From a virus (Duplodnaviria; Caudoviricetes), in the IMG/VR virus record IMGVR_UViG_3300035180_001680: a DNA stretch of 64,000 nucleotides. One strand, given 5' to 3'. The notes beneath the pieces are model-generated. The model saw nothing but the letters and a program-made list of their open reading frames with translations. It did not search any database and had not been told where the DNA came from. Both the position numbers and the translations under genes were made by a program. The stretch's first letter is position 1; every line of letters begins with the position of its first letter. Below, in pieces: positions 38,104 through 43,809 of this stretch.

Positions 38104-39048
38104 ATGGCTCAACTCTCAATGGAGGCCCTACGGGCACAATTCAAAAAAGCAGATACAAACGAAGGTGGTAGTGGTCAAAATAATTATTACCCATTCTGGA
38201 ATATGGAAATTGGTGAACAATCAATAGTTCGTATTCTCCCAGACAAGAATGAAGACAATCCAAGAGGATTTTTAGTTGAAAAAATGATGCATTCATTAGA
38301 AATTAATGGAGAAAAGAAATCCGTCCCATGCTTAAAAATGTATGGAGAAGATTGTCCGATTTGTAAGGTTTCTACAGCATTTTATAAGAAAGACGATAAA
38401 GATAATGGAAAGAAATACTATCGCAAGAAACAGTATCTCGCTCAGGCTCTCATAATTAGTGATCCACTTCCGGTCGATAAAGATACCGGAGAAACACACG
38501 AAGGGAAGGTTCGTTATCTGGCTCTTGGTAACAAACTTTATGAATCTATTAAGGATGCGTTTGAAAGTGGTGATCTTGAATATCCTCCTTATCTATACGA
38601 AAATGGAACAAACTTTATAATTAAGAAACGCCAGTCTGGTGATTATGCTGATTATTCGCGCAGCTCGTTTGCAAAAAATCCAAGCGATTTGGATGAAGAC
38701 ACAGTTGAACATGTGTCGTCGTCTATCATCGATCTTTCAACTCTTCTTCCAAAACACCCAGGTGTTGATAAAGTTGAGGCTATGTTAAAGGCTGCAATGA
38801 CAGGCGAGGAATATAACATTGGTGATAGTTCGGATAGCGATAGATACGACTCTAGTGACGAAGATGACGTTCTTACTGAAAAAGTTGGCTCTGTAAAAGA
38901 AGCTGCGTCAAAGTCAACGAAAGCAAAGACTCCAGAACCAGTTCAAACAAAAGAAGAACCAGTAAGCAGTTCTGATGGTGATTCTGAAGAAGATCCAGAA
39001 GCTATTCTAGCACGTTTGCGCGCTCGTCGTAAAACAAAAGCAGAATAA
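38104..39048 (+). CDS. gp32: ssDNA-binding protein (T4 gp32-like)
   Basis: 'VRILP...CLKMYGEDCPIC', 'GTNFIIK...DYADYSRSSF', acidic tail; start after the AGGAG RBS. Confidence 0.85.
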   Translation: MAQLSMEALRAQFKKADTNEGGSGQNNYYPFWNMEIGEQSIVRILPDKNEDNPRGFLVEKMMHSLEINGEKKSVPCLKMYGEDCPICKVSTAFYKKDDKDNGKKYYRKKQYLAQALIISDPLPVDKDTGETHEGKVRYLALGNKLYESIKDAFESGDLEYPPYLYENGTNFIIKKRQSGDYADYSRSSFAKNPSDLDEDTVEHVSSSIIDLSTLLPKHPGVDKVEAMLKAAMTGEEYNIGDSSDSDRYDSSDEDDVLTEKVGSVKEAASKSTKAKTPEPVQTKEEPVSSSDGDSEEDPEAILARLRARRKTKAE

Positions 39049-39060
39049 TTTTTGAGTTAC

Positions 39061-39081
39061 GGGGTGCTTTTTAGGCACCCC
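39061..39081 (+). terminator. Hairpin between the ssb and uvsX genes
   Basis: GGGGTGC-TTTTTAG-GCACCCC; no U-tract, so attenuator or processing site rather than a strong terminator. Confidence 0.4.
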
Positions 39082-39102
39082 AATTCACTACTGGAGATTT
39101 TT

Positions 39103-40188
39103 ATGTTAAAATTTAGAAAAGAATTTGAAAAAGATATGGAGAAGGCTGGAATAGATTTAGGAGATTCCGATCCTCCCCGCTATTGGTTTTCAACAGGAAA
39201 TTATGCTTTAAACAAAACAATATCAGGAAGTTTTTTTAGAGGAATTCCACAAGGAAGAGTTGTGTGTTTTGCTGGTCCTTCTGGTTCTGGAAAAACATTT
39301 ACTTTGTGTAATTGTATGAGAGAAGCACAGAAAGAAGATATTTTTGTAGTTGTTGGGGACAGTGAACACGCATTGGATAACAGTTTTGTTTCAAAAATTG
39401 GAGTTGATGTAAGCGAAGACTCATATTTGTATGGTGAATTAGATACAATCCCACAAATGCAGAAATATATCTCATCTTTCCTTAAATCGTACGAAAAAGA
39501 ATATGGTATTGGTAATCCAGATGCACCCAAAGTTCTCATAGTTGTTGACAGTTTGGATATGTTAATGACAGAAACAGAAGAAGAAAACTTTGATAGAGGT
39601 GTATTAAAAGGTGACCAAGGTCAACGTAGCAAACAGATAAAATCTGTGTTAAGGCAATTTGTACACGCCATTAAACACCAAAATGTAAGCATTATAGTGA
39701 CTCACCAAGTGTACAGAAATCAGGATATAACGAACGGTGAAGGGGTGTGGATTGTGAATGAAGCTGTTAAGTATTCATTATCACAAATTACGCTGTTGAC
39801 CAAATTGAAACTTAAAGGTGATGTTGCTGGTGAGGTCCGTGGAATTAGGATGAAGTGTGAAGGTTATAAAACTCGTTTTACACAACCATTTCAGACAGTA
39901 ACAATTGAAGTTCCTTATGAAACTGGAATGGACCCATTCAATGGTTTAATGGATGCCGCAGAAGCATTGGGGGTTCTCACGAAAAAAGGTGCTTGGTATT
40001 ACTTTGGAGAGAAAAATTTTCAATCAAAAGATTTTGGTAGTGTAGCCGTTGATGTATTAATGGCTTGTGAAGCAAAGTCTGATGCGTTCCTTCAGGTAGA
40101 ACTCAAGGAAGGTGAAAAGGAAGATCTGAGTGGTAAATCATCAAAGAGTAAAAGAGTCGCAAAAGCACTAGGAGAACAAAATGAATAA
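39103..40188 (+). CDS. uvsX: RecA/UvsX recombinase
   Basis: 'STGNYALN', Walker A 'GPSGSGKT', 'IVVDSL', 'GAWY'. Confidence 0.93.
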   Translation: MLKFRKEFEKDMEKAGIDLGDSDPPRYWFSTGNYALNKTISGSFFRGIPQGRVVCFAGPSGSGKTFTLCNCMREAQKEDIFVVVGDSEHALDNSFVSKIGVDVSEDSYLYGELDTIPQMQKYISSFLKSYEKEYGIGNPDAPKVLIVVDSLDMLMTETEEENFDRGVLKGDQGQRSKQIKSVLRQFVHAIKHQNVSIIVTHQVYRNQDITNGEGVWIVNEAVKYSLSQITLLTKLKLKGDVAGEVRGIRMKCEGYKTRFTQPFQTVTIEVPYETGMDPFNGLMDAAEALGVLTKKGAWYYFGEKNFQSKDFGSVAVDVLMACEAKSDAFLQVELKEGEKEDLSGKSSKSKRVAKALGEQNE

Positions 40189-40555
40189 ATCGAATAAATC
40201 AAGTAGAGGTGATATATTTTATAGGATTCTCAGTTTGGGATGATAAAAATAATTGTTTAAGTTGGAACGATACAATTGAATGGTTCAACATACTTGAAAT
40301 TCAACACGTTCCAGCGATATACGATGGAATATACAACGAAAAAGTGTTCGTTCTGTTGTAGCTGATAATGACTGGTCTAGTCATGAAGGTTATGTTATTA
40401 GAATAGCAGATAGTTTCTCTTATGGAAACTTTCGCAACAATGTTGGGAAAGTTGTCCGGAAGGGACACGTGCAAACAGCAGCACACCACTGGGACTATCA
40501 AAGAATAACACCAAATCTTTTAAAGGTAAAACAATGGACCAAAGAAAAGTTTTAG
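40181..40555 (+). pseudogene. Decayed ATP-dependent RNA ligase (C-terminal half, two frame breaks)
   Basis: Frame A 40209-40361 'YFIGFSVWDDKNNCLSWNDTIEWF...VPAIYDGIYNEK'; frame B to 40555 'EGYVIRIADSF...KVVRKGHVQT...HHW'; motif I (KxDG) absent. Confidence 0.65.
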
Positions 40556-41079
40556 AACGAAATAAAATTGTTGAAATGTATGCAGGCTCACGAGCATACG
40601 GAACAAGTCTTCCTACGTCTGATATTGACATTCGAGGAATTTTTGTTGGGGATCCTGTGAGTATTCGAACACCTTTCTTTCATGTAGATGAAGTGGAACT
40701 TCCAGAAAATGATATTAAATTTTTTGAGTTAAATAAATTTATAAAGTTAGTTGTAGACCAAAATCCAAATGTTGTTGAATTGTTGTGGACAAGTGGACCT
40801 GACATCATCATGTCATCTCCTGCGTACGAATTGCTCCGGCAAGCTAGAGGCAACCTGCTAACATCCAAGGTTGCATTCGCAACTTCTGGATATGCATTTT
40901 CTCAACTTTCCAGAATGAAAAATTCCAAAAAAAATGTAAACAGTTTAGAACCATTAAATGACCTTTGTTCTCTGTTAAAACGAGCTGTCGAAGATGGTAA
41001 TATTGATAAAAACTTTATCGAAGAACACTGTGGAAATAACGTTTTAAATTATATGTTAGAAAATAAATACTTAGTATAA
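40534..41079 (+). CDS. RlaP/NrdC.11-like Pol-beta nucleotidyltransferase, N-terminal fragment
   Basis: 'GSRAYGTSLPTSDIDIRG' signature, 'NPNVVELLW', 'GYAFSQL'. Confidence 0.85.
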   Translation: MDQRKVLERNKIVEMYAGSRAYGTSLPTSDIDIRGIFVGDPVSIRTPFFHVDEVELPENDIKFFELNKFIKLVVDQNPNVVELLWTSGPDIIMSSPAYELLRQARGNLLTSKVAFATSGYAFSQLSRMKNSKKNVNSLEPLNDLCSLLKRAVEDGNIDKNFIEEHCGNNVLNYMLENKYLV

Positions 41080-41115
41080 ATGCTCTTATGCAACTTAAAG
41101 GCATGGACGGTCATA

Positions 41116-42150
41116 ATGGAAGATATTAACAATAATTTTATTGAGCGAATTAAAAATAGCTCCCTGATACGGAAAGATGGAAAAATTAATTCTCCAGCTA
41201 TAAAAAGTGTGCGTAATACACAATTAATTCAAGAAATAATACAAAGTACTAACTACCTTAACAACGATATTTCTTTTTCTCAGAGATGGTGGCATATACA
41301 AAACGGAAAAAATGTTCCTACATGCACAGAATGTAATAAAGAATTGATGTGGAATACCCGCTTATGTAAGTATCTTCGCTTTTGTAGTCAAAAATGTGCT
41401 GTAACTTCTGAGGAGGCATCGGACCGAACCAGTAAACATTTTATGGGACAAAAATTGACAAAAGAACAAGTACAAAAAAGAAAACAAAAAAGAAAACAAA
41501 ACGGATATTATGTGAACAGAGAAAAAACGATTGAATTATTAAGTCAACAAAAACAAGGAGAAAAAAATCCTCAATATGGAAAAACACCATGGAATTTTGG
41601 ATTGTGTGGGGAATTAAATCCTAACTTCGGAAAAAGGCGACCTGGAACTGGTTTAAAGGGAGAAAAAAATCCTCAATATGGGAAATCCCCATCCAAACAA
41701 GCAGGGAGGGGGATTAATGGAAAATTTAACAATTTACACTTTCGTAGTAGTTTAGAAATGTTATATTTAATGTATTGGTATGAAAACAATGTTAATGTTG
41801 TCAGTGCTGAAAACATTAAGTTTCGGGTCAAGTATATTAATTCCAGTGGAGTTAAACGAACATATTCACCTGATTTTTTTATAAATGAAACTAACACGTT
41901 GGTGGAAATTAAACCAGAAAATCTTCACACAAACGTAGAAGTATTGCAAAAATTTAATACCCTAAAAGAAACTCATACACAATTGGTTTGTGAGTTGGTG
42001 GGGTTTAAACAAATTAGTAATTTTATTCAAACAATTATTAAACAAAACAAGATTGATTATTATATAAAATCTGGTATATTAGAAATTTCTTTATTTCAAC
42101 TTGAAAGGCTAAAACACAATTATGGTGACATCATTAGAGCAACTCTTTAA
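41116..42150 (+). mobile_element. Free-standing homing endonuclease (Zn finger + NUMOD3-like repeats + TnsA-like PD-(D/E)XK)
   Basis: 'CTECNK...FCSQKC'; repeated 'GEKNPQYGK'; 'FRSSLE...YSPDFFI...LVEIKP'; near-consensus late promoter TATAAATG at 41075-41082. Confidence 0.8.
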
Positions 42151-42799
42151 AACATATCAAGTTGAAGCGACAAAAGCGGAACAAATGAAACGCGTATGTA
42201 AGCCAAGCCAAGCAACACACACCAACATTTATTTAACTCAGTCTCTAAACCCATTTCGTGTTAACTTTGATGTAAACTTGGAGGGATACATACTTCAACA
42301 CAGATTTTCAACTTCTTTTGATATAGTAAAAAGTACCAACAAACGAAGTACTATATTTACACGAAGTGGTGATTTAAATGTTGGTGATGGAAAATCCAAT
42401 GGGACAATAATCGGTATATTGTTCTTTGATGAACCATCTTACCAACACGCTAAATCAAATTATGATAAATTTTGGGAATGGAAACTTAATCGAAATTCAT
42501 CTCGATCAGCATTAGAGGAACAATTTGGATACGATACTAAACATGCAATGCATCTTGTGCGTTTGTTGCGGATGGGTCACGAAGCATTAACAGAAGGTGT
42601 GATTAGAGTTCGACGCCCTGATGCTCAAGAATTACTATCAATTCGAGCTGGCGCTTGGACATATGAGCAAGTCGTGGAATATGCAGAACACATGAACGCA
42701 GAAGTGGATAAAGCGCTGAAAACATCGCAACTTCGAAAAGATGTAGATTTAATTCAAGTTACAAAGCTGATTATGGATGTGCAAAATTCGGTCTGGTAA
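42122..42799 (+). CDS. RlaP/NrdC.11-like nucleotidyltransferase, C-terminal fragment
   Basis: 'FWEWKLNRN...FGYDTKHAMHLVRLLRMG...RRPDAQELLSIRAG'. Confidence 0.85.
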   Translation: MVTSLEQLFKTYQVEATKAEQMKRVCKPSQATHTNIYLTQSLNPFRVNFDVNLEGYILQHRFSTSFDIVKSTNKRSTIFTRSGDLNVGDGKSNGTIIGILFFDEPSYQHAKSNYDKFWEWKLNRNSSRSALEEQFGYDTKHAMHLVRLLRMGHEALTEGVIRVRRPDAQELLSIRAGAWTYEQVVEYAEHMNAEVDKALKTSQLRKDVDLIQVTKLIMDVQNSVW

Positions 42800-42857
42800 A
42801 ATGTGTAGCTTCCTTGTTCTTTTTATAAATAACTTTGAAGAACAAGGAATTACTTTT

Positions 42858-43343
42858 ATGGTCGAAACATCTAAAGATTTTTTAATTGAAATCATAGATA
42901 CGTTAAACAAGCGTAATTTTGTATATCAACGTGTTACAAACGGTATCGCTAAAAAAATAGATTTTGTTTTTGAAGCAATCATTGAACATTTAAATCAGAA
43001 CGCCCATGAGATGGAATGGGAAAGCATTGAAGTGTCTGATGATTTACTTGTCGTCGTCGCAAAAATTCCAGGTGAAACAGCCAAACAACAAAACGTGTTG
43101 TCTGTTGGAGTTCCTCTTGAAGTTATAAAAACACAATCAAAGGAAAAAGTTTTAGAGTTTTTTGTACAAGCTGAAGCTTTAAGAGTGACAAGAGAAAAAG
43201 AATTAATGGAACTTATTAAGAATTATACAGAAGACATTTCAATGGTTTATGATTCTTTTGATGATGTTGACAATTTAGAAGAAGACGGTGATAATGATAT
43301 GGAAATAGAGAAAAAATCTGTTCCCAAACGAACATTACACTGA
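42858..43343 (+). CDS. Hypothetical protein
   Basis: ORF with AGGA RBS before the MVETSK start. Confidence 0.65.
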   Translation: MVETSKDFLIEIIDTLNKRNFVYQRVTNGIAKKIDFVFEAIIEHLNQNAHEMEWESIEVSDDLLVVVAKIPGETAKQQNVLSVGVPLEVIKTQSKEKVLEFFVQAEALRVTREKELMELIKNYTEDISMVYDSFDDVDNLEEDGDNDMEIEKKSVPKRTLH

Positions 43344-43344
43344 A

Positions 43345-43809
43345 ATGCAACGACCATTAGAATTATTACACGAAAACGTTACAAACATTGTCCGCATACT
43401 CGATGTGTATGAACAATACCTAGACAATTACAAAGACCACCTTCGACTTCAAGGTAAAAATTTAGTTGTAGCAAATAATGAACAACCTGGGTGGTTAGTT
43501 TATTATGATTCCAGACGTTCAGAATTAAAATCTGCTTTAGAATATATGGAAGTTCAAGTTCAGAAAGTTCGAGGGAAATTATGGAAAGATTACACAGAAA
43601 ATTACTCTAGAGAACTTCAAGCAAAAGACAAAGAACAATACATAAACCATGAACCAACATACCTTGATACGTATGAATTATATCTCGAACTAAAAGACTT
43701 ATACGAACAATACGTTTCTGTAGTCGATGCATTTAAGGCTCGGGGATATGCATTAAATAACATTACAAGAATAGTCAGTTCAGACATGGCTGATTATATG
43801 ATAGATTGA
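43345..43809 (+). CDS. uvsY: UvsY-like recombination mediator
   Basis: Helical ~150 aa protein 'YINHEP...FKARGYALNNI' immediately before uvsW. Confidence 0.7.
   Translation: MQRPLELLHENVTNIVRILDVYEQYLDNYKDHLRLQGKNLVVANNEQPGWLVYYDSRRSELKSALEYMEVQVQKVRGKLWKDYTENYSRELQAKDKEQYINHEPTYLDTYELYLELKDLYEQYVSVVDAFKARGYALNNITRIVSSDMADYMID

Follow-up and report, generated by a model that had tools for sequence, protein, structure and literature searches.

How a phage enzyme might survive when a selfish element settles in the middle of its gene is the question raised by positions 40534-42799 of the DNA analysed here, a stretch of 64,000 nucleotides (nt; hereafter the window) in which the gene for an RlaP/NrdC.11-type nucleotidyltransferase (NTase) lies in two pieces with an endonuclease gene between them. 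The window is minus-strand sequence of an IMG/VR virus record of 179 kb (IMGVR_UViG_3300035180_001680; Duplodnaviria, Caudoviricetes) that makes up about half of a phage of approximately 340 kb, an uncultivated, giant, T4-like phage, and it encodes T4-like gp32, UvsX and UvsW genes. Characterised enzymes of the RlaP family, of which NrdC.11 of T4 is a member, add one or two nucleoside monophosphates to the 3'-OH of damaged RNA (preprint 10.64898/2025.12.29.696909). Known phage genes split by an endonuclease are nrdA of Aeromonas phage Aeh1 (with mobE), gene 39/60 of T4 (with mobA) and gene 43 of phage 25 (PMC2988022). Only a handful of genes in pieces owing to free-standing homing endonucleases have been documented, and this locus adds a different enzyme class, the RlaP RNA 3'-nucleotidyltransferases. 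We consider it probable (roughly 0.75) that a homing endonuclease resides inside a long-form RlaP/NrdC.11-type gene, that the two resulting polypeptides reassemble so that the enzyme is kept, and that the cassette is recent, with alleles co-circulating. The phenomenon as such is known; new are the host enzyme, the series of alleles and a type of endonuclease that we did not find described. The features of the locus are as follows (aa, amino acids; ORF, open reading frame).

40534-41079, plus strand: N-half of the RlaP/NrdC.11-type nucleotidyltransferase, 181 aa (ORF listing)
~40790-42500, plus strand: tract that differs from the sister contig L025, read as imported (co-converted)
41075-41082, plus strand: T4-type late-promoter-like motif TATAAATG, covering the stop codon TAA of the N-half (41077-41079)
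41116-42150, plus strand: endonuclease ORF, 344 aa, or 356 aa if the in-frame ATG at 41080 is used
42122-42150, plus strand: 29-nt overlap coding in two frames for the 3' end of the endonuclease and the start of the C-half
42122-42799, plus strand: C-half of the nucleotidyltransferase, 225 aa (ORF listing)

The N-half and the endonuclease share one reading frame, with the TAA between them, and the C-half is in a different frame, starting 29 nt inside the endonuclease ORF. This overlap is read both as the C-terminus of the endonuclease (..NYGDIIRATL*) and as the beginning of the C-half (MVTSLEQLF..), and the start codon and ribosome-binding region of the C-half both lie within the endonuclease ORF, leaving only 36 nt of non-coding DNA at the locus. 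Together the halves total 406 aa. An initial annotation, made from the letters and their ORFs alone, had already described two intact halves with these lengths, ends and overlap, the same total and the lack of spare non-coding sequence, all of which agree with the ORF listing; the presence and position of its endonuclease were right, and only the length given, 345 aa, had to be corrected.

The identity of the two halves follows from profile comparisons. The N-half scored 44.1 bits against the Pfam family RlaP (PF10127, cut-off 23) and matches positions 30-186 of the 351 positions of phrog_388, and the C-half matches positions 191-334 of the same profile (E 1.6e-28); the C-half has no match in Pfam, and NCBIfam gave a match for none of the three locus proteins. 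The N-half is a Pol-beta NTase domain with a GS motif and Asp30, Asp32 and Asp60, three Asp being required in the NTase domain of RlaP (preprint 10.64898/2025.12.29.696909), and in the alignment of eight N-halves G18, S19, D30, D32 and D60 are invariant. Its residues ~142-181 (40957-41076), hereafter the tail, are missing from short-form homologues and are conserved in nine split loci. The C-half consists of a head (residues 1-27), a beta-rich middle domain (28-111) and a conserved helical domain (112-225) that carries the GYDTKHAMHLVRLLR motif and a terminal helix, the helical motif region GYDTKHAMH... being invariant or nearly so among 18 C-halves. The stretch 42203-42454 of the window, which encodes C-half residues 28-111, is without the usual LV(Q/H)NF and RLVPYG motifs, and so is the middle domain in L013. 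A role of the gene in RNA repair is predicted from family membership only.

When the halves are laid along intact relatives, they jointly cover the contiguous gene colinearly. Cultured phages carry it as a single gene of 349-418 aa (ChuuTotoro, ABPH49, KLEP7, where it is annotated nrdC.11, W70, 121Q, K64-1 and Kae01), a syntenic relative has an intact gene of 353 aa, and intact long-form homologues reach 410-428 aa, which brings the 406 aa of the halves close to the long forms and shows that intact homologues are single genes and not naturally two. Between the N core and the C core, short forms have 104-121 aa, long forms of the 121Q type 169-171 aa and split alleles 156-172 aa; because the window has 167 aa, against the 169-171 aa of the long forms, no protein is missing from the split gene. 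The breakpoint falls in a loop that belongs to a phage-specific insertion sub-domain, with the NTase domain on one side and the middle and helical domains on the other. Three metagenomic proteins (P0151, P0152 and P0168), which we term type-A unsplit long forms, possess the same tail and head with a linker of 6-9 residues between them; these nest within the split clade as sister to loci L026 and L027. The tail and head also equal the 121Q-type insert in position and length, and a global hhalign alignment is colinear; homology to that insert is not claimed, as the tail and head alone gave no significant match to it (P 0.15; reversed control 0.065). A sequence search of the PDB with an intact RlaP returned zero matches, and megablast gave no match to the locus among cultured phages.

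An allele without the endonuclease was found on a nearly identical backbone. The sister contig L025, the contig of protein P0002, encodes an intact gene of 354 aa, and was compared with the window by blastn and sliding identity. Identity is 98.8% over window positions 38943-40222 and ~100% over 40510-40779, falls to 58-71% over 40780-40915, gives way to no similarity over 40915-42455 and returns to 97.5% over 42456-43607, so that ~1.7 kb in the window stands in place of ~0.5 kb in L025. The boundaries are sharp, near 40790 and at 42460-42500, with a diverged but homologous stretch at the left; the right edge of the tract falls between 42456 and 42501. Codons ~86-181 of the N-half, the endonuclease and codons 1 to ~112-126 of the C-half thereby fall within the tract. 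Such a mosaic is expected if homing, or recombination, was accompanied by co-conversion of sequence from a split donor that had diverged, and with 97.5-100% identity between its flanks and the intact allele, the cassette appears to be a recent arrival in this phage lineage, acquired by recombination from a donor allele that was already split.

Both alleles co-occur on one phage backbone in the same samples. This was seen in Logan contigs from four metagenome runs of four studies, all from 2020 and all from sediment or microbial mat, of which run X1 may be the source sample; allele depths are per contig and indicative only. In runs X2 and X4 one contig joins 40791 to 42501 via 508 other letters, i.e. 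the intact allele, at depths of 218 and 10.5, respectively, and the insert is covered by separate contigs at depths of about 11 and 2. X1 is dominated by the insert allele (depth 49), next to which there is a loose end of the intact type at a depth of 3.6. A second polymorphic segment adjoins the first: positions 40189-40533, between uvsX and the NTase gene, contain what is left of the 3' part of an RNA ligase gene (PF09414), which matches positions 237-280 of the 342 of phrog_24030 up to a stop and then continues with the C-terminal EGYVIR...KVVRKGHV in another frame. At this place L025 has other DNA, with ORFs of 102 aa and 190 aa, the latter matching the start of the ligase profile only, and a contig of run X4 joins 40222 to 40490.

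The same arrangement occurs widely within one clade of giant, uncultivated phages, so that the initial proposal of a new case of a split enzyme is borne out as to the split, though not as a one-off. A protein search with the C-half retrieved at least 13 clusters of stand-alone homologues of 225-238 aa, with full query coverage and a start of the form M.TSL(E/D)QL, and the three-gene layout is present in at least nine diverged uncultivated giant phages. N-half, endonuclease and C-half follow each other in L013, L014/15/17, L019, L020, L021, L022/23 and L026, whose UvsX proteins are only 51-76% identical to that of the window, with N-halves of 176-199 aa, endonucleases of 334-344 aa and C-halves starting 29 nt inside the endonuclease ORF, an overlap that has the same length and a near-invariant sequence in seven diverged loci. 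Four loci depart from this layout. L018 has the same split, but with a 223-aa GIY-YIG enzyme as the endonuclease and with a head of another type; L016 equals L014 save for a 1-nt indel that shifts the frame of the endonuclease; and in L027 the endonuclease body is deleted and the halves remain split, 33 nt apart, these 33 nt being the last bases of the endonuclease ORF before the C-half ATG, AAGGA included. In L024 an endonuclease of 45% identity lies convergently on the opposite strand beside an intact RlaP gene of 360 aa. A Ro60/TROVE-vWA gene, an RNA quality-control context, lies a few kb off in the latter locus (L024 1-892 and 5001-7117).

On a tree of the conserved cores, built with IQ-TREE and including eight split alleles, these alleles are placed scattered among intact short forms. 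The tree implies eight changes of state for the eight split alleles, at least six of which are forced by branches with a Shimodaira-Hasegawa-like approximate likelihood ratio test (SH-aLRT) value of at least 95 (starred branches), and the nearest neighbour of each split allele is an intact short form; the core of the window is 90% identical to that of the intact P0002. The endonuclease family is small, about 25 clusters, and wherever its context was looked up (the split loci, P0140 and P0144) it lies in or adjoining an RlaP gene. The phage's own record of 179 kb has no second copy, scanning IMG/VR gave no homologues, and tblastn against cultured phages gave one weak partial match only, in Vibrio phage pv27.

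The endonuclease itself comprises an N-terminal helical region, a CxxC...CxxxC zinc finger (~68-94), three NUMOD3 modules (~148-195) and a TnsA-like PD-(D/E)XK domain (~200-344). NUMOD3 was recognised by Pfam (E 1.2e-7), next to weak matches to TnsA-like_N and DUF7487, and the three NUMOD3 repeats and the FRSSLE motif are kept in 23 homologues, among which the four Cys and E232, D253, E264 and K266 are invariant. The fold of the nuclease domain is, as modelled, TnsA-like PD-(D/E)XK: in the AlphaFold model (predicted local distance difference test, pLDDT, 87) TnsA is the top match of the C-terminal domain in Foldseek (probability 1.0, E 7e-3) and is found by VIA with a Z of 8.9 and a root-mean-square deviation of 3.4 A over 136 residues, the next match having a Z of 6.7. 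I-Bth0305I and Vsr match the nuclease domain weakly (VIA Z 4.8-5.0), I-Ssp6803I is absent from the structural match lists, and a PDB sequence search with the endonuclease yielded chance coiled-coil matches only. The enzyme is unlike the classic T4 Seg or Mob types. Full-text searches, of a limited literature scope that gives no proof of absence, retrieved no paper on an architecture of zinc finger, NUMOD3 and TnsA-like PD-(D/E)XK and none on a split RlaP gene. We infer that the enzyme would cleave the allele that lacks it.

TATAAATG, which sits 34 nt upstream of the endonuclease ATG, appears to be the endonuclease's own late-type promoter, as was suspected from the start: in all eight loci compared, the GIY-YIG locus L018 included, a (T)ATAAATA(C)-like motif is present across the N-half stop or immediately after it, and TATAAATA occurs 18 times in the window where 6.3 are expected. 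A scan of the sequence for sigma-70 promoters and terminators gave no more matches than shuffled sequence. A T4-style hairpin that would sequester the ribosome-binding site before the endonuclease is not consistent across loci: L019 has a clear one (z -3.2) and four loci have a modest one, while the window (z +0.9), L014 and L022 have none.

Whether the halves still serve the phage was addressed by selection and by modelling. Nei-Gojobori comparison of L026 (with endonuclease) and L027 (without) gave an omega (ratio of nonsynonymous to synonymous change) of 0.18 for the N-half and 0.23 for the C-half, compared to 0.16 for UvsX and 0.46 and 0.40 for two downstream genes. Both halves are therefore under purifying selection, as measured in these relatives and outside the window's own lineage, and the relaxed selection that was initially named as a refuting result was not seen in them. 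Synonymous divergence (dS) is 1.12 in the N core, 0.18 in the N tail, 0.11 in the C head, 0.33 in the C middle domain and 0.98 in the C core; because it drops from about 1 in the cores to 0.1-0.3 at the junction, this region is younger than the backbones, a gradient that fits co-conversion of the sequence flanking the endonuclease. An ESMFold2 model of the two halves as a complex scored 0.82, whereas the best of three controls stood at 0.04. Of 80 solved complexes, 58 attained the mark of the halves, as did 2 of 110 mismatched pairs (rough counts, own alignments used); contact agreement between runs was at least 63% and the partner pLDDT at least 73. In the model N-half residues 66-70 and 97-104 are contacted by the last helix of the C-half (213-225), the helical and NTase domains pack against each other, and the tail (139-166) touches the head (18-32), which agrees with the packing in the crystal structure of PfRlaP (preprint 10.64898/2025.12.29.696909). 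Because a single fold is divided between the chains, a good score is expected and is no proof of binding. On each of the three points by which the initial proposal of an endonuclease-split, still functional RNA-repair enzyme could have failed (a cryptic intron, relaxed selection or halves that do not interact, homologues that are naturally two genes), the result favours it to the extent that sequences can tell, assembly being modelled and RNA repair predicted from family membership.

These observations can be joined into the following course of events. A free-standing homing endonuclease gene would have been inserted into a long-form RNA 3'-nucleotidyltransferase gene in such a way that the promoter motif of the endonuclease contains the stop codon of the N-half, and translation of the C-half begins anew at an ATG 29 nt before the end of the endonuclease ORF. 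Both chains would then reassemble non-covalently into a normal RlaP fold, with the terminal helix of the C-half packed on the NTase domain and the tail touching the head, by which the addition of nucleotides to RNA 3' ends would be preserved. Into the lineage of the window the cassette would have come by homing with co-conversion from a split donor, endonuclease-bearing and intact alleles co-circulating since.

Several points weigh against an enzyme that is kept in this way, and they have to be considered together with the possibility that the insertion inactivated the gene in this phage, the ORFs being open only through recency and the locus decaying. With flanks 97.5-100% identical to the intact allele the cassette is recent, and therefore the openness of the window's ORFs says little on selection, the evidence for which comes from other split loci. 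The C-half middle domain in the window and L013 has a mean identity of 19-22% to the other split alleles, compared to 34-41% among the rest, which makes it about twice as diverged, and it may be under relaxed constraint there. The ribosome-binding site of the C-half is weak, with a poor Shine-Dalgarno sequence (AAAGG ~17 nt upstream) unlike those in L013, L020 and L027; the RNA-repair context may be decaying, because the neighbouring RNA ligase gene upstream is a truncated remnant; and the intact allele dominates sample X2. Moreover, the heterodimer and its activity are predicted from a model in which a good score is to be expected of two parts of the same fold, and cleavage by the endonuclease is likewise a prediction. 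Inactivation nevertheless seems quite improbable to us. The donor lineage of the tract has an old and conserved split, with at least nine diverged loci that keep intact halves, a conserved tail and head and invariant GS/D/D/D residues; omega is 0.18-0.23 for the halves even in the endonuclease-less allele; in sample X1 the split allele predominates; and the halves are modelled confidently as one complex.

That the middle ORF is a domesticated partner in a three-gene module with the NTase pieces, and not, or no longer, a mobile endonuclease, might be read from its occurrence almost only with RlaP genes, its fixed length (334-347 aa) and 29-nt overlap, a divergence (mean 50% identity) like that of the halves and its provision of the C-half translation start. 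Presence/absence polymorphism on a single phage backbone and the polyphyletic placement on the core tree speak against this, as do the loci in which it is frameshifted (L016) or deleted (L027) with the halves intact, replaced by a GIY-YIG endonuclease (L018) or set beside an intact gene on the opposite strand (L024); NUMOD3 modules are, moreover, typical of homing endonucleases. We regard domestication as very improbable. Even less credence, next to none, is given to a cryptic intron, an intein or recoding (read-through with frameshift, or bypass) that would restore a single polypeptide, although group I introns that contain endonuclease ORFs, and the translational bypass of gene 60, are known from T4-like phages (PMC2988022), and although the N-half and the endonuclease happen to be in one frame in the window. 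Rfam, scanned with E up to 10 over 40000-43500, gave chance matches only, all with E above 5 and none to a group I or II intron, and with 36 nt of non-coding DNA and a C-half that overlaps the endonuclease there is little room for one. Pfam found no Hint or intein domain in the locus proteins, in line with the initial annotation, which saw neither intein termini nor a recognisable group I core, and true RlaP inteins lie elsewhere, in the GYD/TKHAMH motif. An intein and read-through are ruled out by the stop codon, the change of frame and the variable gap lengths in relatives (35-43 nt, the frame not being preserved). Tail and head are conserved as protein together with the stop and the ATG, and L027 keeps two ORFs after endonuclease loss, all of which argues for two polypeptides.

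An endonuclease-split gene whose products reassemble resembles, most of all, nrdA/mobE of Aeh1, in which a free-standing homing endonuclease with late-type expression signals likewise lies in a phage enzyme gene and two ORFs together equal the intact protein of relatives (PMC2988022). The nrdA pieces reassemble after translation, as is predicted by the model here. The host gene there is a ribonucleotide reductase and the endonuclease is of the HNH type, whereas here we deal with an RlaP NTase and a TnsA-like PD-(D/E)XK enzyme with NUMOD3; in addition, empty, occupied, endonuclease-deleted and unsplit long-form alleles have all been sampled here, and the function of the pieces is what we infer. 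In T4 39/60 with mobA and in gene 43 of Aeromonas phages 25 and 44RR a gene has similarly become two cistrons at an endonuclease insertion, and gene 43 of 44RR is split without an endonuclease (PMC2988022), like L027; unlike in those genes, the present locus has no bypass element and no long untranslated spacer, and its downstream half restarts within the endonuclease ORF. In T4, mobD is inserted next to nrdC.11 and has an unknown target (PMC2988022), just as the L024 endonuclease lies beside an intact RlaP gene, but nrdC.11 is unsplit and mobD encodes an HNH enzyme. The RlaP proteins of P. fluorescens and P. aeruginosa share the NTase domain, the three catalytic Asp and a helical C-domain whose last helix packs on the NTase domain; they are single chains encoded in RtcB operons, whereas here there are two chains, and the phage form adds the middle domain and the insertion sub-domain. 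With TnsA of Tn7, I-Ssp6803I and I-Bth0305I the endonuclease has the restriction-endonuclease-like fold in common. It differs in that no transposase partner is present, in that zinc-finger and NUMOD3 DNA-binding modules precede the nuclease and in that its gene is free-standing, not intron-encoded.

The allele series is nearly complete, from empty (on a 98%-identical backbone) through occupied, with a second endonuclease family, frameshifted and split without an endonuclease to the unsplit long forms. This makes it testable how a protein tolerates a cut at a domain boundary and how a selfish element supplies the stop, promoter and restart signals by which the host gene survives, and it yields a defined pair of polypeptides for the study of RlaP, the biochemistry of which was described only recently. 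The series could also be arranged as a full homing cycle of gene fission and re-fusion, a tentative extension that we think rather unlikely. In such a cycle the endonuclease would invade and split the gene, its overprinted 3' end supplying the ribosome-binding site, start codon and first residues of the C-half; it would then decay, as in L016, and be deleted, as in L027; and the halves would finally fuse into unsplit long forms (P0151, P0152, P0168) with a linker from endonuclease remnants. If true, a selfish element would have added coding sequence to its host enzyme permanently.

Inteins are also found in this gene family and its surroundings. RlaP proteins of ~700 aa from giant phages (P0157, P0161-P0163, P0166, P0169, P0181 and P0189) contain an intein of ~330-340 aa, with LAGLIDADG_3 matches in P0162 and P0189, at the most conserved motif, GYD / C...HN / TKHAMH, as located from P0163 and the BLAST coordinates of three others; the RlaP gene is therefore the target of three kinds of selfish elements. 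The UvsW helicase of L026 (4555-7134, 859 aa) has a LAGLIDADG_3 match and probably contains an intein as well. Large DUF723/T5orf172-type endonuclease-like ORFs lie after uvsX and before uvsW in relatives (L012 3997-5694 and 8077-9546; L013 1716-3410; L014 59-823), and the window is without them. By its gene content, the gp32-uvsX-uvsW region is a hotspot of mobile endonucleases. Downstream of the split gene, an exact TATAAATA is present at 42824-42831, just past the C-half stop and within a listed ORF of 188 aa (42777-43343); because this motif lies inside the ORF and just upstream of an internal ATG (MVETSKDF), the true start of the ORF is probably further downstream than listed.

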